9,660 nt of DNA from a virus (taxonomy: Duplodnaviria > Heunggongvirae > Uroviricota > Caudoviricetes), in IMG/VR virus record IMGVR_UViG_2706794688_000013; one strand, 5' to 3'. Shown in pieces: positions 243 through 8,615 of the stretch. Under the pieces are notes generated by a model that was not told where the DNA came from, ran no database searches, and was given only the letters and a program-made list of their open reading frames with translations. Position numbers and translations under genes: made by a program. Numbering within the stretch: the first letter of the stretch is position 1; each line of letters opens with the position of its first letter.

Positions 243-1325
243 TCATTTTCTCTGGCTGATCTTTACCGGATAACCATCCCGAAGATCAATTAAGTGCTCC
301 GGTTCAGAAGCAAACCATGCATAAGATCCCCACGCCAATTCTGGTATTGCCTTTTTAAAAGGCAGAGCACTTCTGTCCATAAATGCCGTAAGGAATGCAA
401 GATTTTTCTCGCTGAACCCAGCGTCAATAGCCAAATGAGTGAGAGTAACTTTTCGTTCCCTGTTTATAGGCCCATCTGTCGCAACTACTTCAGTGAAAAC
501 TACAAGCATGTCCGAACCCGTTCGGTCCTCTCCCAAATCAATCAAAATAATATCTGGAAGTGCTTTTGAGGCATCAATATTCAGCCCCAATGCTTTTGCC
601 AATACATCATCCTGAGCAACAACTTTATTCCCGGATTCAGACAACCAGAGCACAGTTGGATTCTTAAGAAAATTAGGAGCAAAAACTTCGATGACGGCCT
701 TAGCTATTGTACTTGACGGGCCCGGAGCTAAAGTTCTCTTCTCTCCATTTGGGAAAGTGACGACTACGGCATCAGCAGCAATCACTGCCCCTGATTTCAA
801 TAAACGCAACCTAGCAAGAGCGGCTTTGTTCAAATGATTTTCTTGCCAGGAACTTATTGCACTCAGCAGCGAATCTCCTTCAAGCCCGGCATCAAAGAGT
901 GCTGCAAAAGAGCGATTCAAACTGTAACGAGGACGAGAGGATGTGGTGGGTATACCTTTACGCTCAACAATTGCATTGCAAGGTATTAGGCCATTTTTTA
1001 TAGTTTCATCACGTATTGGCTCACGCGTATTTTCCGCATACCATGCATCAGCAGGCCTTATCTTTTGTTTAGAGAAAGTCATCTTTACCCAGCTTTCTCT
1101 GGACGCATCATCAGTAAGAGCAGCCTGCGAATCTCCCATACTTACAACCTGGCTGGGCCTTATCCATCGCCCCAGCCCCTCAACCGCACCAGCATAAAAC
1201 ATGACAAAAATTGTTTTTGCAGCTATTTCCCGAATTAAATATCCACGATTCTCAGTCCCTTCAGGGAAAATTAATTGTAATCTTTCCCGGATAACATTCA
1301 ATGGGGGAACAACAGGCAGATTCAT
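243..1325 (-). CDS. Putative Type II restriction endonuclease (BsuBI/PstI-like, tentative)
   Basis: 360-aa ORF whose ATG (1325..1323) overlaps the TGA of the upstream methyltransferase in an ATGA arrangement, indicating translational coupling. Stop TGA at 245..243. The family assignment rests on operon context and my recollection of BsuBI/PstI-family sequences; no catalytic motif was verified. Confidence 0.55.
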   Translation of the reverse strand: MNLPVVPPLNVIRERLQLIFPEGTENRGYLIREIAAKTIFVMFYAGAVEGLGRWIRPSQVVSMGDSQAALTDDASRESWVKMTFSKQKIRPADAWYAENTREPIRDETIKNGLIPCNAIVERKGIPTTSSRPRYSLNRSFAALFDAGLEGDSLLSAISSWQENHLNKAALARLRLLKSGAVIAADAVVVTFPNGEKRTLAPGPSSTIAKAVIEVFAPNFLKNPTVLWLSESGNKVVAQDDVLAKALGLNIDASKALPDIILIDLGEDRTGSDMLVVFTEVVATDGPINRERKVTLTHLAIDAGFSEKNLAFLTAFMDRSALPFKKAIPELAWGSYAWFASEPEHLIDLRDGYPVKISQRK

Positions 1326-3154
1326 GCAATCATCACTCCATAGAAACCAGCGATAGTTCTCTCAATAATCCGTCTGTGGACGCCAGCATCAATTAACGAT
1401 TGAATCTCCATCACCTGCTCCAGAGAAGGCAACGGGATTGAATTCAATTCATAGGCCGAAACAGCAACACTTCCGCTTATACACCTGAACGCCCGATCGA
1501 CAACATGCGAATTAAGTAGCATATCAATAACATCAGGGCGAACCGCAGAGAACAATCCGTTTGAATATACAATATTAATATGGTTTTCAACTACTACGCC
1601 ACCAGTTTCATCTATAAATCCCTGAGGTAAAATTGCCGCTAAAATCCTTCTGTCCTGTTCCTTCGATGTTGTCCGCTGAACAAGCACACATTCAGATTTT
1701 GTCACAAGGAAACCCTGTTGTGGGGTTATATCGATATAGGGAACATGATTTTTTCTGTCTGCACTAAAACGAAAACCAGCTGAAGTTATTGATTCCGCCC
1801 AGACTAATGGGTAGCTATTTTTTCCTTTCGTCGTACGCAACTGCGACTTAAATCGATTCCAGACTAACTGACCTGTAGAGACTGAGTATCCCAGATCAGC
1901 TAAACGCGTAGACATCTGTTTTAATACATTAAGAAAACAGGCATCATCTTTAACGCGTGGCAAAAGCCACGTTGCTCCACCTTTTTCTATATCAACATTA
2001 CCTATTTTCTCAATTTTTGCTTTGTTCAACCCCTTAGGGACAAGTGAGGATACCTGGGCCCGAACTTTATGTTCTCCCGCCTTGAATGCTGTCAACATTG
2101 TTTCCTGGAGAACATCGTCAAAGACCCCATCCCTGTCAGTGACGAAATCAAGGGCATACGGAGTAGTTTTTTCGGTCAAAAGGGTTCGCAGCGCGGTGAA
2201 ATACTGCCCACCAAGAAAAGAAGTTGGCGTAAGAAATGCAATAACTCCTGTTTTCTCTTTAACCATGCGAACAGCTAAGTCGGTGAACAATCCATATAGA
2301 TTTGCATGACCAAATAACGAACGAGAATATTTTTCTCTCGTTTTAATATCGAGAGTGACACGTCCGTAAGGCGGATTCCCTACCACAAGATCATAACCAG
2401 AAAATTTATCTTGCTGAAGCGCATCAGCAACAATAATTGTATCTTCAGGCAATCTACGTTTTACCTTTACACATAGTGGCATTAGTACAGATTCGAGCAA
2501 TACCAAACTCATCCAAGCCGCAAATGGATCGATCTCTATCCCCTTTAAACGACGACTGATTCTCCTCAACATCCATTCAGGGGAAGACCCCTTGTCTTTT
2601 TTTAACATTCGAATGGCTACTGGTGCCAAAAATGCACCGCCACCACACGCAGGATCAATAACCGATGCATGAGAAAAATCAACACCAGACTTTTCAGCCA
2701 GGTCCAAGAGACGCGCTACCAAAGGTGGGGGGGTATAGTAAGCCCCCAATTCCGAACGGTAAGCGGATGGCAGCATTACCGTATAAATTGACCCAATCAG
2801 ATATCCAGCGTCCTCCGCCGGAAATTGAGCAATAAGCTCACCTGTTCGTTCAGCGAGCTCGCGTGCATCACATGGAATGTCTTCTATGTAAACAGTGTGC
2901 GGTACTGCCCTCATTTTAATGCTGCTTTTTTGCTTTTTTGCAAGGGTATCCCAATATGCAGCTACGATGCTGAAGCAGTATGAGCGGGCATGCATCAACC
3001 TTGACTGCCCGGTTTTGTAATTGCCCGCATAACCTTTGGCCATGGCTTTACAAGTTTGATATCTTTCCAGATTAGAAAACTCATTATCTGTAAAAAAATC
3101 AAAATGTTGCACATTCATAATGTAAAATCCTAATGTATCAAACATGCGGGCCAT
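1322..3154 (-). CDS. N6-adenine DNA methyltransferase (gamma-class amino-methyltransferase)
   Basis: 610-aa ORF with motif order X (ELGAYYTPPPLV), I (VIDPACGGGAFLAP, the AdoMet-binding loop) and IV (VVGNPPYGRV, the NPPY catalytic motif), followed by a long C-terminal region consistent with a target-recognition domain. The start could be 3154, 3145 or 3118; the ATG at 3118 has the best Shine-Dalgarno (TAGGAT). Confidence 0.85.
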   Translation of the reverse strand: MARMFDTLGFYIMNVQHFDFFTDNEFSNLERYQTCKAMAKGYAGNYKTGQSRLMHARSYCFSIVAAYWDTLAKKQKSSIKMRAVPHTVYIEDIPCDARELAERTGELIAQFPAEDAGYLIGSIYTVMLPSAYRSELGAYYTPPPLVARLLDLAEKSGVDFSHASVIDPACGGGAFLAPVAIRMLKKDKGSSPEWMLRRISRRLKGIEIDPFAAWMSLVLLESVLMPLCVKVKRRLPEDTIIVADALQQDKFSGYDLVVGNPPYGRVTLDIKTREKYSRSLFGHANLYGLFTDLAVRMVKEKTGVIAFLTPTSFLGGQYFTALRTLLTEKTTPYALDFVTDRDGVFDDVLQETMLTAFKAGEHKVRAQVSSLVPKGLNKAKIEKIGNVDIEKGGATWLLPRVKDDACFLNVLKQMSTRLADLGYSVSTGQLVWNRFKSQLRTTKGKNSYPLVWAESITSAGFRFSADRKNHVPYIDITPQQGFLVTKSECVLVQRTTSKEQDRRILAAILPQGFIDETGGVVVENHINIVYSNGLFSAVRPDVIDMLLNSHVVDRAFRCISGSVAVSAYELNSIPLPSLEQVMEIQSLIDAGVHRRIIERTIAGFYGVMIA

Positions 3155-3368: not shown

Positions 3369-3725
3369 TTATTCGGGGCTATATTTTGTCACCCTGCGTA
3401 TCCGCGCTTTCGCATTACGCTCAATCTGGATTAGCTTTTCTATATTTTTTCGCCTTTCCCGCTCCTCCTGGCGCAAGAGCCTTACATCATCTGCCAGTCT
3501 GGTTTCTCTTTTCGCCACAGAGAGCATCCAGTCAAATGGCTCCACAACTGCACCGCAAATTTTACAGCGGACCTGACGCTCTTTTTCGTCAACCCGGACA
3601 GAAGCGTGATGGCAATATGGTCTTTCCGATGGCTCATAAAGAAAATTAACCTGATTACGAGGGTTATCCTCTTTTACCGGAAATAAAACAATATTGCTTA
3701 ACTCATCTTCTGGTTTTATTTCCAT
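3369..3725 (-). CDS. Hypothetical phage protein with a Cys/His cluster (zinc-ribbon-like) and a charged C-terminal helix
   Basis: The ORF track starts at a GTG at 3782. The ATG at 3725 is preferred because it is preceded by AAAGGAGAGGAGC. Contains YCHH...x16...CKIC followed by an Arg/Glu-rich segment. Function unknown. Confidence 0.5.
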   Translation of the reverse strand: MEIKPEDELSNIVLFPVKEDNPRNQVNFLYEPSERPYCHHASVRVDEKERQVRCKICGAVVEPFDWMLSVAKRETRLADDVRLLRQEERERRKNIEKLIQIERNAKARIRRVTKYSPE

Positions 3726-3782
3726 GCTCCTCTCCTTTGATGCGAATGCCAGCGGTAATTGAAGCCTGATAGCTAATTTCAC

Positions 3783-4205
3783 TCACAGTACCGCCTCCTG
3801 AAAATCACCCTGATAGAAAGCCGGTACACGCTGCATAACTTCACTCTTCCGGCACTCGCGACAGATTATGTTCTGATGTCTGTCGTAGCGGCGTATTTCT
3901 CCGTCCGGTAATGACCAGATAAGGTCCGGATCAACCACAGATGGTTTCTTCAGCTTTGCCCTCGAGAGTTTTTTGCGGGCGTTTTGCCAGTCCTTACGAG
4001 CCTGTTCAGACGGGAATAACCCGTAGCCAGAGTTGTATACATCCCCACTGGCAACCAGCTCTCTGGCGAGAACGCTTATTAAATATCTTGTCGCCCCGGT
4101 TTTAGCTTCCAGTTGTCGTAACGTCTCGCGCCCACTCTGGCGTACGAGTTCAACAACCTGCCCCTTAATTTTTTCCCGCTCTTCCTGTGTAAATACTTTT
4201 GCCAT
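3783..4205 (-). CDS. Hypothetical phage protein
   Basis: The ORF track starts at a TTG at 4220. The ATG at 4205 is preferred (upstream CGGGGGCGCTT; 15-nt gap after the stop of the upstream gene). Has a C-terminal CRECRK motif. Same strand and tightly packed with its neighbours. Confidence 0.5.
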   Translation of the reverse strand: MAKVFTQEEREKIKGQVVELVRQSGRETLRQLEAKTGATRYLISVLARELVASGDVYNSGYGLFPSEQARKDWQNARKKLSRAKLKKPSVVDPDLIWSLPDGEIRRYDRHQNIICRECRKSEVMQRVPAFYQGDFQEAVL

Positions 4206-4220
4206 AAGCGCCCCCGGCAA

Positions 4221-4946
4221 TCACTTTTCCGACACAATACGACCGGAGGAATCGACAATCTGTCGAACAATATCCCGGTGCTTGTTCAGCTCCCGCAACG
4301 CGGCGCAGACACGCTCCCACTTCTGGACATGACTTTTCGCCCGACGCAGTTCGCGGTTTGCCATATGCAGCGATGGTAAAACCAGGTCATCCGCTTGCGT
4401 TTCGGTGAACGATGGCAACGACTGCACAATGTCCGCCACAGTTTCTGTTTTAATTTCTTCCTGTGTTGCAGCTTCCTGTACCGGTAACGCAACACCTGCT
4501 GGCTGAGGAAAGACTTTACCATCCGTTTCCGCTATGGATGCGGCTTTCGGCTCTGCCGGTAAATCAGCGCCCGGTATGCAGTACCGAAATTTACCGCCCT
4601 GATTCACGCGAATCAGACGCCCTTTGCTGATTGCCATGGCCAGCGATGAATTCGCCCGGCGGGAGGTAATCCCGAACATCAGTGCCAGCTCATCCGCCGT
4701 TTGTGGGCCATGTTGTTCAATCGCCTCAGTCAGCATTTGCGCTGTCACTTTCGGTACCGGTGACACTGGTTCACTTTCACCAGCCTGAATCAGCCACCAC
4801 ATCGAACCCTTGTTATCCGCTTCACCACGGCGCTTCAGTTTCCACAGTTCGTTGACCGCATCTTCACGGCTGATTCCAAGGCGGGACGCCACCACATGTG
4901 AAGAGGCTCTTTTCAGTGCTTTCAGTGCGTCAAATACAGTTTCCAT
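4221..4946 (-). CDS. Hypothetical phage protein with two winged-helix-like segments
   Basis: ATG at 4946 is preceded by GGAGGA with a 7-nt spacer; the ORF track's TTG start at 4964 is less likely. Two similar segments ([25 protein letters not shown] and [27 protein letters not shown]) suggest a tandem HTH or winged-helix fold. Lies immediately downstream of the DnaC-like gene (stop 4968..4970). Confidence 0.55.
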
Positions 4947-4967
4947 TAAAACATCCTCCAACAAAAA

Positions 4968-5479
4968 TTACTTCACAACTCCCGGAAAGCTGACATTTGA
5001 ACGCCAGCTATCCCAGTTAAACGTCACCCACCGACAACCGTTCATGGTCATGCGGTCCATAATCCTCTCACCAAGAAGCGTGCTCATTGCGGCATGATTC
5101 AGGTTTGTTAACATCCCGACACTGCACAGTGATGCTGTCCGGCGATCAATTATCTGGTGCAATACCACCTGCTCGTTTTTCGTCTCCCGCTGAATGCCTA
5201 TTTCATCCAGGACCAGCAAATCAACCCCGCAAAGCTCCTGTAAAAATTTTTCACCGGATTTGCCGTTGTCGTAGCTGTCATGCAACACGCTCATGACATC
5301 AGACTCGGTGACGATAATCACGCTGCGCCCCTTCGCCATCAGCCGGTTACCCATCGCCGCTGCAAGGTGATTTTTCCCGGTGCCGGTTTTACCGCTGAAC
5401 ACAAAATTCGTGCACCCGGTCATCAGTTCGTCAGCTATGGATTTGGCCTGGCTCAGCGCGTATTTTTGCCCGTCGTTCT
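4968..5479 (-). CDS. DnaC-like helicase loader (AAA+ ATPase); 5' end lost in the N gap
   Basis: Walker A FSGKTGTGKNHLAAA and Walker B LLVLDEIG motifs in the expected order and spacing for DnaC/IstB-type loaders. Only the C-terminal part is visible; the N-terminal part lies within or beyond the N run. Confidence 0.85.
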
Positions 5480-5732
5480 NNNNNNNNNNNNNNNNNNNNN
5501 NNNNNNNNNNNNNNNNNNNNNNNNNNNNNNNNNNNNNNNNNNNNNNNNNNNNNNNNNNNNNNNNNNNNNNNNNNNNNNNNNNNNNNNNNNNNNNNNNNNN
5601 NNNNNNNNNNNNNNNNNNNNNNNNNNNNNNNNNNNNNNNNNNNNNNNNNNNNNNNNNNNNNNNNNNNNNNNNNNNNNNNNNNNNNNNNNNNNNNNNNNNN
5701 NNNNNNNNNNNNNNNNNNNNNNNNNNNNNNNN
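5480..5732. other. Assembly gap (253 N)
   Basis: Uninterrupted run of n. The X-containing ORFs reported across it are reading artefacts. Confidence 0.99.
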
Positions 5733-6742
5733 CAACGCTGGTTGTTCGTGCCGCTTACCGGGAGCAACCAGGGGTTTTCAAAATTCCGGTCCGGCCCAAA
5801 AAACGTCGTCGCTCGCTGAACAAATTCCGTTCCCGCTTTCCCGGTCGCCGCCAGGTATCTCGCGTAACGCCTCACACCATCCAGCATGGTCTCTGGTGGC
5901 ACCCCCTCGCGCAATCTGGCCTTCCAGGCACTGAATGCGGATTTCTTCGGGTTTGCCCCGGCACGCAACGGGTATTCCCGCCAGACCTGTTCGAACACAT
6001 CCGGATAATCCACTCGTCCCACAGGCTGCCCGGTGTTTTCCGGGGCTACCCGATCGGCTTCCCGCTGAATGGCGGAATCGGCTTCAGGCTGCTGCAGTTG
6101 GAGTGATTGCTCCGGCCTTGCGGTCATCACCTGCTGCACAGCGCCCGAATCGGCTTTCAGCGCATACGCTGAATCGGCTTCCGGTGTCGAGCCTGCTGGC
6201 TGACCAGGATTGACGGTCTGAACATCCCCTGCCTGGTTCGTGGCGTTTTTTACGCCATGGACCATAGTGTTTTGATCTTCTTTATCTGTATCTTTATCTG
6301 TATCTGTCGTGACTCGTCGTGACATGTGCGTGACATTTCGTGACGCGCCGTGACAATCGCCATTTTGTTCCCGCTTTCTTTCCCTCTCTCGCTGCGCCCT
6401 CTTGCGCTCTGCAGGAGATTTTGCGGTTTGCGAAATATTGCCGTTGTCCTCTTTAAGCACCTGGCGTTTTTCCCATCCAGTGATTAAATCACCATCAAGT
6501 ACCCGCCCCTGCATCGTCTGCAAAATTGAATCAATTACCTCTTCTGTCACGTCGAGCGCACTTGCCAAATCTTCTGTCGTGACATCAATGTGACCTCGCG
6601 TGACATTTCGTGACGCGCTCACCAGGAGGTGGATATACACTGCCATCACTGTTGCAATTGGCTGCCCTGACACCCTGGCAATTGTTCGCCACTTAGGGTC
6701 ATTTGGCATGTCATGCCATAATCTGAGCCAGGCGTTAGCCAT
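5733..6742 (-). CDS. Phage replication initiator / replisome organiser (lambda O-like); 3' end lost in the N gap
   Basis: ATG at 6742 is preceded by GAGGTGA. The C-terminal visible part has the W..YP.....K..A...W motif (VWREYPLRAGANPKKSAFSAWKARL) that I associate with phage replication proteins. The gene contains the iteron arrays. Gene order (Cro-like, YdaT-like, this gene, DnaC-like) matches Rac-type early-right operons. Confidence 0.7.
6280..6303. repeat. Perfect 12-bp tandem duplication (CTTTATCTGTAT x2) in an AT-rich stretch
   Basis: Read directly: 6280..6291 equals 6292..6303. It lies inside the O-like gene, where it encodes a TDKDTDKED repeat, immediately next to iteron cluster 1. Confidence 0.8.
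6308..6354. repeat. Iteron cluster 1: five CGTGAC hexamers phased at 10-11 bp
   Basis: CGTGAC at 6308, 6318, 6329, 6339 and 6349, about one per helical turn. Confidence 0.65.
6578..6614. repeat. Iteron cluster 2: four (C/T)GTGAC hexamers phased at 10-11 bp
   Basis: Hexamers at 6578, 6589, 6599 and 6609, plus an inverted copy GTCACG at 6546..6551. A 21-bp stretch (6598..6618) is identical to 6328..6348 in cluster 1. Confidence 0.65.
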
Positions 6743-6813
6743 ACTCACCTCTTCTGATACCGAATCTTTTTACTCACGAGTTGCCGGGAGCGATTCGATA
6801 TGGCTATTGTCAG

Positions 6814-7239
6814 TCAATGTACTGCCACAGCATTTCCTGCCGGGCCACCACGGTTCATCTGATTGAAACCGGCGATTGCCACTGCGACAAAATCATCAGC
6901 GTCTCTCACCAGTCGTTCATGCGTCTCCACCAGTTCCCGAAAATAAGCTGAACTGTGGCTGCGCATTCGAGCCACCAGCGGAGGTGGCATTGCCCTTTCG
7001 ATCGCAGGTAACAACGCCTGAATTTTTTCAACAGCGTCAGGGGTGTCTTTATCCAGCCAACGGAAAATCTTTTGGGTGTTGAGATAAAGCGTGTTGTGCT
7101 TGCTGTCGTTATGCAGAACCGGAAACGTCATTCCCAGTTCGAAATAAACCCTGGTTATTTCAGCTGCCGGAACTTTTTCACCGTCCGGATGCGCCCAGGC
7201 TTTCATCGCCATGCGGATGTGTTCATGCTTGATTTTCAT
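6814..7239 (-). CDS. YdaT-like protein (Rac-prophage family; proposed CII-like regulator)
   Basis: 141 aa beginning MKIKHEHI, which I recall as the N-terminus of E. coli Rac YdaT. Its ATG (7239..7237) overlaps the TGA of the upstream Cro-like gene (ATGA), and GGGGG lies upstream. Confidence 0.65.
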   Translation of the reverse strand: MKIKHEHIRMAMKAWAHPDGEKVPAAEITRVYFELGMTFPVLHNDSKHNTLYLNTQKIFRWLDKDTPDAVEKIQALLPAIERAMPPPLVARMRSHSSAYFRELVETHERLVRDADDFVAVAIAGFNQMNRGGPAGNAVAVH

Positions 7240-7499
7240 GAATCAACCCCCGCCGATGGTTGTGTGTTAGCCTGAAACTCAGCAGGCAAGCCGTCAGTTG
7301 GGTTGGGGTAGGTTTTACTGTCAATCTCATGTGGGGTCACCACCCATCCCGTTGCTTCACACCAACGTAATATTTTTTCTCCTGTAAGTTTTGCACGCCC
7401 CGTTATAACGTGGCTGACCATCCCTTGGGATGCGCCAACAATCTCAGCAAATGAACTCTGGGTTATATGAAAATGATGCAAATATTCTCCAAGATTCAT
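7236..7499 (-). CDS. Cro/YdaS-like HTH regulator
   Basis: ATG at 7499 is preferred over the ORF track's TTG at 7526. HTH-like segment QSSFAEIVGASQGMVSHVITGRAKLTGEKI. Transcribed divergently from the repressor gene and first in the replication operon. Confidence 0.6.
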   Translation of the reverse strand: MNLGEYLHHFHITQSSFAEIVGASQGMVSHVITGRAKLTGEKILRWCEATGWVVTPHEIDSKTYPNPTDGLPAEFQANTQPSAGVDS

Positions 7500-7535
7500 A
7501 ATCCGCCCTATGTGATGTGTTACCAATGCATAATT

Positions 7536-7575: not shown

Positions 7576-7610
7576 TCAAAGTGATTAGCAATCTTATTAG
7601 AATTGGATGT

Positions 7611-8111
7611 ATGAAAAGAAAATCATTGTCAGACACCGACCTCAACGCCGCCAGAAGACTGAAAGAAATCTGGATGGCAAAGAAATCTCAGTTGGGATTG
7701 ACTCAGGAACGTGCGGCGGAAATTATGGGGTTTTCAACACAAGGGGCGGTAAGTCACTACCTAAATGGTCAAACCCCACTAAACCTTGAGGCTGTTCTAA
7801 AGTTTGCTGGCTTACTGAAAGTTCCCCCTGAGTCAATCAGGCCAGACATGGTAGATTTGCTGCAAATTGCAAGGATGTATTGTCGAGAACCACAGCAAGA
7901 TAACATAGTCGCATTACCAGCAGACACAGAACAAACAGAGGATGAACTACCGTTTGCCGTAGAGCCGATGGAACGAGATTTAATCCATACGTTCAGAGCT
8001 TTTCCGAAAGAAGATCAAGAACACATGCTTCAGGAGATGAAAGATAAAAAAGAATCAATGGATCGTACGGTTGCGCGGTGGTTAGCTGCACAAAAAGGCC
8101 GTCGCGCCTAA
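7611..8111 (+). CDS. HTH (XRE-family) repressor; candidate immunity repressor and/or PaaR-like regulator of the downstream toxin-antitoxin pair
   Basis: ATG at 7611 is preferred over the ORF track's start at 7581. N-terminal HTH (LTQERAAEIMGFSTQGAVSHYLNG). No Ser-Lys peptidase (LexA/S24-like) C-terminal domain is recognisable. Divergent from the Cro-like gene. Confidence 0.7.
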   Translation: MKRKSLSDTDLNAARRLKEIWMAKKSQLGLTQERAAEIMGFSTQGAVSHYLNGQTPLNLEAVLKFAGLLKVPPESIRPDMVDLLQIARMYCREPQQDNIVALPADTEQTEDELPFAVEPMERDLIHTFRAFPKEDQEHMLQEMKDKKESMDRTVARWLAAQKGRRA

Positions 8112-8130
8112 ATCAGAGGAGATATGTAAA

Positions 8131-8325
8131 ATGAGTACAGTCCTTTCCCCAATGGTTTCAGAATTTGAGACAGTTGAGCAAGAAAATAGTTACAACGAAT
8201 GGCTGCGGGCCAAAGTAGCAGCAAGCCTCGCGGATCCCCGCCCGGCGATTCCGCATGATGAGGTAATGGCGGAAATGGAACAAATTATTGCCCAAATTGC
8301 TGCTGCAACTCACAGAGGTGAATAA
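8131..8325 (+). CDS. Small antitoxin (PaaA/ParD-like)
   Basis: 64-aa acidic protein directly upstream of a ParE-like toxin, with a 1-nt stop/start overlap (TAATG). Shine-Dalgarno GAGGA lies 10 nt upstream. Confidence 0.65.
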   Translation: MSTVLSPMVSEFETVEQENSYNEWLRAKVAASLADPRPAIPHDEVMAEMEQIIAQIAAATHRGE

Positions 8326-8615
8326 TGTTACCCGTTTTATGGCTACCATCTGCTCGTGATGATTTGCGCCAGATCGTAGCCTACATAGCTAAAGAAAATC
8401 CCGCGGCAGCACGCAGAATGAAAATTCGAATTGAAACATCCGTTTTGCCGCTCACAGAGCATCCTTACCTGTATCCTCCAAGCGAGCGAGTTCTTGGTCT
8501 TCGTGAAATTGTAACTCATCCTAACTACATCATCCTTTACCGAGTAACAGCATCAAGCATAGAAGTAGTAAATATTGTGCATTCTCGAAGACAGTATCCA
8601 GGCAAAAACAGTTAA
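8325..8615 (+). CDS. ParE/RelE-superfamily toxin
   Basis: 96 aa with the ParE-like pattern: N-terminal W..SARDDLRQIVAYI, then PYLYP...GLREIVTHPNYIILYRV, then VVNIVHSRRQYP at the C-terminus. Coupled to the antitoxin. Confidence 0.75.
   Translation: MLPVLWLPSARDDLRQIVAYIAKENPAAARRMKIRIETSVLPLTEHPYLYPPSERVLGLREIVTHPNYIILYRVTASSIEVVNIVHSRRQYPGKNS

Follow-up and report, generated by a model that had tools for sequence, protein, structure and literature searches.

Is a repeated hexamer inside a phage replication gene a feature of the protein that the gene encodes, or of the DNA itself, and does it mark the place where replication starts? This question is raised by a 9,660-nucleotide stretch of DNA from a prophage of the Caudoviricetes (IMG/VR record IMGVR_UViG_2706794688_000013), which we analysed at its full length and refer to as the window. 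It holds the gene of a replication initiator with two arrays of the hexamer GTCACG. The location of an origin inside an initiator gene is a textbook principle, and the original prediction, made from the letters of this stretch, was that the repeats form such an origin. We find that the repeats are DNA-level elements, not peptide repeats. Judged from sequence comparisons, the two GTCACG arrays, an adjoining A+T-rich tract and perhaps a palindrome probably make up the replication origin of the prophage within its initiator gene. The predicted function is thus supported computationally by frozen codons, phasing, the two-array layout, the A+T-rich tract and gene context.

Two helically phased arrays in the initiator gene

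The initiator gene starts with the ATG at 6742 and runs on the minus strand to about 5680, an approximate end, with positions 5733-6742 visible. The repeats do lie within its coding sequence, as had been predicted. What the prediction overlooked was the minus-strand orientation of the gene, as well as the A+T-rich tract and the imperfect palindrome that are described below. On the coding strand the repeated word reads GTCACG. We call the cluster that comes first in gene order array A (6578..6614, minus strand; cluster 2 of the original prediction) and the other one array B (6308..6354, minus strand; its cluster 1). On the plus strand the word is CGTGAC, and exact copies start at 6308, 6318, 6329, 6339 and 6349 in array B and at 6578, 6599 and 6609 in array A. 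The count of nine direct hexamers holds for the units in the two arrays and not for exact copies, of which there are eight. The ninth unit, TGTGAC at 6589-6594, matches the word at five of six positions and is in register with its cluster. In gene coordinates array A consists of GTCACG, GTCACG, GTCACA and GTCACG at nt 129, 139, 149 and 160, and array B of five GTCACG at nt 389, 399, 409, 420 and 430.

The spacing of one helical turn is borne out by measurement in both clusters, with steps of 10, 11, 10 and 10 nt at 6308-6354 and of 11, 10 and 10 nt at 6578-6614. Tandem Repeats Finder calls a period-10 array at 6306-6355. On both strands of the window there are nine matches to CGTGAC where 2.97 are expected, and none of 200 dinucleotide-preserving shuffles reaches nine. 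Nowhere else in the window are there three or more GTGAC or GTCAC per 100 nt.

Array A encodes residues 43-56 of the protein (ASRNVTRGHIDVTT) and array B residues 130-146 (CHGASRNVTHMSRRVTT), the latter in a disordered linker past the N-terminal domain. In the predicted structure, array A corresponds to the end of the helix 29-45 and to the loop and strand 46-55, ahead of the helix-turn-helix, and array B to the linker, with pLDDT below 50 for residues 131-161. A loop and a disordered linker tolerate change best, and these are the parts of the protein that the arrays are predicted to encode. The stretch 6360-6400 (gene nt ~343-383), which lies between the arrays and immediately ahead of array B in the gene, shows a strong pyrimidine/purine strand bias, with a GC skew of -0.57 and an AT skew of -0.88 on the plus strand, and encodes a conserved basic helix, ERKRAQRERERKRE.

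Selection on the DNA of the repeats

Could the hexamers merely reflect a peptide (SRNVT...VT) that is conserved or repeated, or be the result of chance or slippage, with no function at the DNA level? The conservation of the peptides ASRNVTRGH..VT and CH.ESRNVT in homologues would fit such an origin, but the way in which the hexamers are read does not. The frames are 2, 0, 1 and 0 in array A, where the 1 belongs to the variant, and 1, 2, 0, 2 and 0 in array B. All three frames are used, and the hexamers are translated as Cys-His, Ser-Arg, Val-Thr and Gly-His. When synonymous codons were resampled from the usage of the window with the protein kept, 5000 trials gave a mean of 0.63 GTCACG and a maximum of 4, compared with the 8 observed.

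Homologous genes bear on this as well. We aligned the codons of 20 genes of the GTCACG type. When the segments encoded by the repeats are set aside, these genes are about 61-77% identical to the window, and 63-77% in the N-terminal domain, with a single exception at 96%. One row of this alignment is displaced by one codon, which is why every column holds a single odd codon. Under array A, Ala43 is encoded by GCG in 17/19 genes and Ser44 by TCA in 18/19, while Val47 (GTC), Thr48 (ACG), Gly50 (GGT), His51 (CAC), Val54 (GTC) and Thr55 (ACG) each keep one codon in 19/19. Under array B the same is true of His138 (CAC, 17/17), Ser141 (TCA, 19/19) and Val144 (GTC, 19/19). Other invariant residues, taken as controls, use their codons freely, e.g. 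Val32 is encoded by GTG five times, GTC six times, GTT seven times and GTA once, and Val81 by GTA four, GTC three, GTT eight and GTG four times. The codon counts are 5/5/4/5 for Thr20, 3/6/4/5 for Ser25, 5/10/4 for Gly79 and 7/7/4/1 for Gly89. Synonymous sites are saturated at other invariant residues of the N-terminal domain and fixed just under the repeats. The original prediction had named homologues that keep the peptide and lose the hexamers by synonymous change as evidence against a role in replication; in these 20 homologues the opposite is found, and the codons are fixed.

The use of three reading frames, the codon resampling and the frozen codons together show that selection acts on the DNA of the repeats, independently of the protein. 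The two peptides are conserved because the hexamer DNA is the constraint. Two further facts are at odds with a constraint from the peptide, namely that other subfamilies carry other words, and hence other peptides, at both sites, and that the peptides sit in a loop and a disordered segment. A peptide-repeat or chance origin of the hexamers, to which we give next to no credence, is rejected on the basis of the frozen codons, the resampling and the three-frame reading.

How far is this arrangement conserved? We compared 40 homologous loci from contigs of one genome per species, which cover gamma- and betaproteobacteria (Enterobacterales, Pseudomonas, Bordetella, Acidovorax, Chromobacterium and others). 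Nearly all of these loci have array A at gene nt ~129-165 and array B at ~380-430. Those of the GTCACG type mostly have four copies in array A and three to five in array B. The steps are of 10 nt in 92 cases and of 11 nt in 28 cases, and the gap between the last unit of array A and the first of array B is 211-247 nt in 21/22 loci. A check of the hexamer phasing in homologous initiator genes, which had been suggested with the prediction, therefore finds both the phasing and the two-array layout conserved. The conserved core across loci is the asymmetric 6-bp word GTCACG, and its flanks are weak or variable. A single inverted copy at 6546..6551 (GTCACG on the plus strand, the only minus-strand match to CGTGAC), which the original prediction also pointed out, is present as described. 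Its coding strand reads GAC GTG ACA, for Asp64-Val65-Thr66. Val65 is encoded by GTG in 17/17 homologues, so that the GTGAC core is kept here. This inverted copy, at gene nt 192, recurs in many loci of the GTCACG type and is absent from those of the CGAACG type.

The word itself varies by subfamily, and both arrays of a locus switch together. Most loci carry GTCACG. The word is GTAACG in L022, L025, L033 and L036, and CGAACG in L030, L032, L034, L035 and L037, with a looser form in L040, while L026 has CGTCACG with some 5-nt steps. A de novo search of the two regions, made separately, recovered the same phased word in both for 26/40 loci and for 0/200 shuffled sets; most of the remaining loci agree under looser criteria. 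Differences in copy number come in quanta of 21 nt, i.e. two units or seven codons. For example, array A has six copies instead of four in L004 (Escherichia albertii; gene nt 129-190) and P0021, which results in a 7-residue insertion in the loop (TCHGVSL), and array B of the window has two units more than most homologues (7 residues, HMSRRVT).

The word switch has a counterpart in the protein. Outside the array-encoded loop, the helix-turn-helix and the wing are alike in all word classes. The array-A segment is the sole part of the N-terminal domain that differs systematically by word class, with RNVTRGH..VT in the GTCACG type and NATERGRTQNV in the CGAACG type. It is conceivable, although we think it improbable, that the iteron word dictates a surface segment of 12-14 residues which in turn helps to read the iteron, so that site and reader would change in one step. 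If true, this would let new origin specificities arise by a self-referential route, and the joint switch of both arrays would be explained.

Across gamma- and betaproteobacteria the arrays stay with the initiator N-terminal domain, while the C-terminal domains and the neighbouring genes change. An origin and the domain that binds it must travel together, which would account for an N-terminal half of the gene that is well conserved while C-terminal domains are swapped. In two loci from Serratia and Pantoea (L039 and L041) the conserved N-terminal domain is joined to a different, longer C-terminal part with a YVYYV...GISRNPWAR motif, which is possibly GIY-YIG/T5orf172-like; hexamer arrays and the DKD linker were not seen in these two. 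Another variant, P0002 (310 aa; in Shigella and E. coli contigs, also L047-L050), is identical to the initiator in its N-terminal half. An apparent 32-nt deletion after ...AIQR, seen by eye in two translations, shifts its C-terminal frame, and it is probably a decayed initiator copy that retains the arrays. A scan of viral contigs returned solely near-identical copies from E. coli prophages and added no diversity.

The candidate origin and its alternatives

Directly after array B in gene order lies an A+T-rich tract of 43 bp (6265..6307, 28% G+C), a candidate DNA-unwinding element. The G+C content of the gene region has its minimum here (0.30 at 6260-6299). Within the tract, 6279-6305 is made of 12-nt tandem repeats, TCTTTATCTGTA, and the product is a TDTDKDTDKEDQ linker. 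The 36 nt after array B are A+T-rich in 32/32 loci, with a mean of 72% compared with 44% in the rest of the gene (paired p 5e-10). The tract also holds in hosts of ~66-70% G+C, e.g. 72% A+T versus 33% in L014 and 72% versus 29% in L021. Most of the tracts that follow array B have AGATAAAGATAAAGA in common, and their Asp codons are GAT (18/18 and 15/16), with GAC prevailing elsewhere. A GATC, or Dam site, is found at 6274-6277 and recurs in or beside the linker (AAAGATCTAAAA, encoding KDL) of several enterobacterial members, namely L008, L016, L023, L036 and the ydaU gene of the Rac prophage; a link to origin control by Dam and SeqA is possible.

On the far side of the tract, 6234..6264 can tentatively be described as an imperfect palindrome, with 13-nt arms that are 85% complementary and a 5-nt spacer. 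Among the homologues, 10/35 have a hairpin in the interval from +25 to +70 past array B that at most 7 of 100 shuffles reach, which is a weak tendency. The origin of lambda has a palindrome in the equivalent place, beyond its A+T-rich tract.

How might such an origin work? After derepression, the early, rightward-type transcript of the cro-like, cII/YdaT-like, initiator and DnaC-like genes would yield the replisome organizer, whose winged-helix N-terminal domain would bind the 6-bp GTCACG cores. Cores that recur every 10-11 bp place the sites along one face of the helix, and phased binding could therefore build a cooperative protein filament or a wrapped complex, comparable to the lambda O-some. 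Array B, with its five sites, abuts the tract at 6265-6307, which would melt. The C-terminal domain of the initiator and the DnaC-like protein would then bring the host DnaB onto the opened DNA. Array A, ~230 bp upstream in the part of the gene that encodes the winged helix, may be a second initiator-binding block that most likely loops into the same complex. Other possible roles for it are initiator titration or handcuffing, or a block to transcription of the gene.

A good analogue of this layout is phage SPP1. Its oriL lies in gene 38 and consists of repeats bound by G38P (AB boxes) and an adjacent A+T-rich unwinding element, and a 356-bp oriL fragment suffices for reconstituted G38P-dependent replication in vitro (PMC5737612, PMC6316719). 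In the sequence of gene 38 we find that the repeats recur every 11 nt over gene nt ~357-410 and that an A+T-rich Asn/Asp linker comes next. In both systems the origin, proven in SPP1 and proposed here, lies in the gene of its own initiator, the repeats and the A+T-rich linker sit at the boundary of the N- and C-terminal domains with the position and polarity of array B and its tract, and helicase-loading genes follow. The C-terminal parts of the window protein and of G38P both match PHROG 1701 and PHROG 1163; that of the window protein has no match to Pfam Phg_2220_C. Both N-terminal domains may be winged helices, a fold that was modelled for the window protein alone. That said, there are differences. 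The second SPP1 origin, oriR, lies at a distance of 13 kb; the second array here is separated from the first by 230 bp of one and the same gene. In Tritos, a related phage with a complete genome, 8 of the 17 coding-strand GTCACG are in the initiator gene and no second array exists elsewhere, and there is thus no equivalent of oriR. SPP1 also encodes its own DnaB-type helicase, G40P, unlike the DnaC-like loader alone that is found here, and the repeat words differ.

The likeness to lambda that was drawn in the original prediction is a fitting analogy, but no homologue of O is involved: the window protein has no Phage_rep_O match even at E up to 10. G38P with oriL is the closer analogue. The lambda ori comprises four iterons and an A+T-rich tract in the middle of O, and in Stx phages with six iterons the two extra iterons correspond to 13 extra residues of O (PMC7466680). 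Both here and in lambda, iterons and an A+T-rich tract in the middle of the gene encode the link between an origin-binding N-terminal domain and a loader-binding C-terminal domain, functions that are presumed here. The polarity, iterons and then A+T-rich tract along the direction of transcription with possibly a palindrome beyond, is shared as well. Extra iterons are paid for in in-frame residues in either case, 13 per two iterons in Stx phages and 7 per two units here. The lambda iterons are ~19 bp long with internal symmetry and form one block of four, in contrast to the 6-bp asymmetric core and two blocks described here, and the lambda loader is P instead of a DnaC-like protein. The remark in the original prediction that two arrays are unusual when compared with lambda is fair.

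Other replicons also have two separate groups of direct repeats for a single initiator, e.g. incC and incA of P1, incB and incC of F, and the SaPIs, which have short iterons resembling hexamers. The 19-bp iterons of P1 and F flank the rep gene, whereas both blocks lie within coding sequence here. In the SaPIs the two sets flank an A+T-rich region, whereas here the tract follows the second block alone. The initiators are unrelated in all of these cases, and the window protein has no match to Rep_3, the family of iteron-plasmid Rep proteins (RepA/RepE/Pi), whose iterons of 17-22 bp flank the rep gene. The Rac prophage provides a further comparison, as its ydaU-ydaV region has the same operon of a ydaS-like gene, a ydaT-like gene, an initiator and the DnaC-like ydaV. 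Its ydaU (E. coli K-12, L127:4120-4977) contains, over gene nt 385-460, repeats that resemble GATGTTCAA, and the same ATAAAGATACAGATAAAGATCT linker comes after them. The N-terminal domain of YdaU is DUF1376 and not the winged-helix family of the window, and the ydaU repeats have a different word and looser spacing. Further GATGTTCAA-like copies occur in ydaU at gene nt 147 and 232, and its C-terminal domain is swapped. Rac has an active origin, oriJ (PMC3945230), whose mapped position we did not find in the literature searched. The ydaU repeat region may be the site of oriJ, which we offer as a lead.

Some observations weigh against an origin at these arrays. The literature that we searched contains no experimental binding, unwinding or origin activity for this family. 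With 6 bp and hardly any conservation of its flanks, the core is much shorter than one would expect of a specific initiator site; the lambda iterons measure ~19 bp. Five of the 40 homologous loci (L029, L031, L038, L039 and L041) have no clear arrays, and no residues of the recognition helix or wing were seen to track GTCACG, GTAACG or CGAACG. The full-length match of the initiator to Pfam Phage_rep_org_N is below threshold (E 0.1), and homology of its N-terminal domain to SPP1 G38P is undetectable (hhalign probability 0.1%). Finally, the conservation of a DNA site proves function and not which function.

This last point leaves room for other roles of the arrays. Might they be binding sites of the initiator or another regulator that act in control only, through roadblock autorepression, titration or handcuffing, with the origin elsewhere? 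The auxiliary iteron arrays of P1 and F (incA/incC) control copy number by titration or handcuffing and speak for such a role, as do the presence of two separate arrays, one of them far from the A+T-rich tract, and the fact that sites within a transcribed gene could block RNA polymerase. We nevertheless consider it unlikely. A pure control locus has no need of the A+T-rich tract that directly follows array B in 32/32 loci, and the complete Tritos genome holds no other array. SPP1 and lambda, whose origins are proven, also have the same layout (PMC5737612; PMC7466680). The main reading, an origin in the initiator gene, leaves room for array A by itself to act in control.

The repeats could also bind a different protein, such as a host factor or a partition or packaging protein, for instance at a ParR-type centromere, which would make their location in the initiator gene incidental. 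The initiator is the presumed binding protein, and the arrangement here, two blocks of direct repeats with a phasing of 10-11 bp, is reminiscent of plasmid R1, whose parC has two blocks of helically phased direct repeats. Several findings make this unlikely as well. The arrays keep company with the initiator N-terminal domain as C-terminal domains and neighbours change, and neither a partition nor a terminase gene is adjacent. The word differs among phages of closely related hosts (GTAACG in Enterobacter and Pantoea, CGTCACG in Erwinia and GTCACG in Escherichia), which disfavours a conserved host factor. DnaA boxes are not enriched either, with 29 matches of up to two mismatches in or near the region compared with 28.9 expected. 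An origin bound by its own initiator is the explanation that we prefer.

Compared with the known systems, three features look new, namely a 6-bp core that recurs once per helical turn, the presence of two arrays with one of them in the part that encodes the DNA-binding domain, and a word that switches throughout the family. The literature searched did not describe an origin for this initiator family, although many papers in subscription journals are outside its coverage and an earlier mention is possible. A paper on the Eru-type replication regions of Stx phages does not discuss origins.

The replication operon, its distribution and neighbouring genes

The initiator protein matches PHROG 3729, 'replication initiation protein', over residues 3-338 (profile positions 1-338 of 356, E 2e-235), with weaker matches to PHROG families named 'replisome organizer'. 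NCBI names close relatives 'phage replisome organizer'. Residues 1-95, encoded by 6458..6742 on the minus strand, are the presumed origin-binding domain; the model of this domain is a winged helix similar to the N-terminal domain of DnaD. Between 5480 and 5732 the sequence consists of 253 N, which hide the 3′ end of the initiator gene together with the 5′ part of the DnaC-like gene. By alignment with a 97.7%-identical locus from E. coli F8704-2, the masked part of the initiator gene should comprise its last ~18 codons and stop. The counterpart of the mask in the 97.7%-identical E. coli locus (L126) is ~296 nt long and contains the end of the initiator (...NNQRCVNHISEPDTEIPPGFRG, then the stop) and the start of an ATP-binding protein. 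No NCBIfam model matches the window initiator protein, and NCBIfam finds a 24-residue DnaT-like tail in the relative.

Directly downstream, the gene of the DnaC-like helicase loader occupies 4968..5714 on the minus strand, with a putative start at 5714. Its protein matches the ATPase domains IstB_IS21 and Bac_DnaA and PHROG 50, 'DnaC-like helicase loader', and the full protein of the 97.7%-identical locus matches NF009043 at 1.5e-153 and the DnaC model NF005931 at 2.4e-89. Upstream on the same strand are a YdaT/cII-like gene (6814..7239; Pfam YdaT_toxin, PHROG 163, 'CII-like transcriptional activator') and a Cro-like helix-turn-helix gene (7236..7526; Pfam HTH_3, PHROG 35), and a CI-like helix-turn-helix repressor (7581..8111) is divergent from these two. 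The Cro-like, YdaT/cII-like, initiator and DnaC-like genes are the early replication operon of a lambdoid-type prophage, and transcription from the promoter of the Cro-like and YdaT-like genes runs through arrays A and B. A scan for internal promoters and terminators gave no more than shuffled sequences did; a promoter-like match at 6330-6357 consists of the repeats themselves, and a 'terminator' at 6234-6264 is the palindrome. No Rfam family of structured RNAs was found in the window.

The operon is widespread. DNA similar to window positions 5733-7300, i.e. most of the initiator gene and the YdaT-like gene, is present in 3069 of 5426 complete E. coli genomes, as well as in induced phages such as Tritos and Evi. 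The initiator has more than 1200 homologues. Prophages of, among others, Pseudomonas, Bordetella, Serratia and Aeromonas carry relatives, and no classical model phage is among the relatives in the phage collection.

A defined origin would give a starting point for the construction of prophage-derived replicons and for predictions of replication incompatibility between co-resident prophages. It would also help researchers to read prophage induction data, e.g. marker-frequency peaks. The word variants GTCACG, GTAACG and CGAACG form a natural series for studying the evolution of initiator-origin specificity. How does a winged helix gain specificity from 6-bp sites, one per turn, by cooperative phased binding? 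The arrays pose this question.

Some neighbouring genes of the window deserve mention. Three small, conserved prophage genes of unknown function lie downstream of the loader and encode DUF1627 (4221-4964), DUF977 (3783-4220) and a zinc-ribbon protein (3369-3782). Tritos and UPEC 26-1 are relatives that lack a DnaC-like gene, and in them the initiator is directly followed by DUF977. In the early region of the prophage, restriction-modification cargo lies on the same strand downstream of the replication genes, with a BsuBI/PstI-type endonuclease at 243-1325 and an Eco57I/N6-adenine-type methyltransferase at 1322-3154. After the CI-like repressor come the genes of a PaaA2 'stability determinant' (8131-8325) and of a toxin of the ParE family (8325-8615). 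We take the region 7581-8615 to resemble the paaR2-paaA2-parE2 toxin-antitoxin and immunity module that is reported for a cryptic O157:H7 prophage (Jurenas et al. 2021, as cited in PMC11014345).

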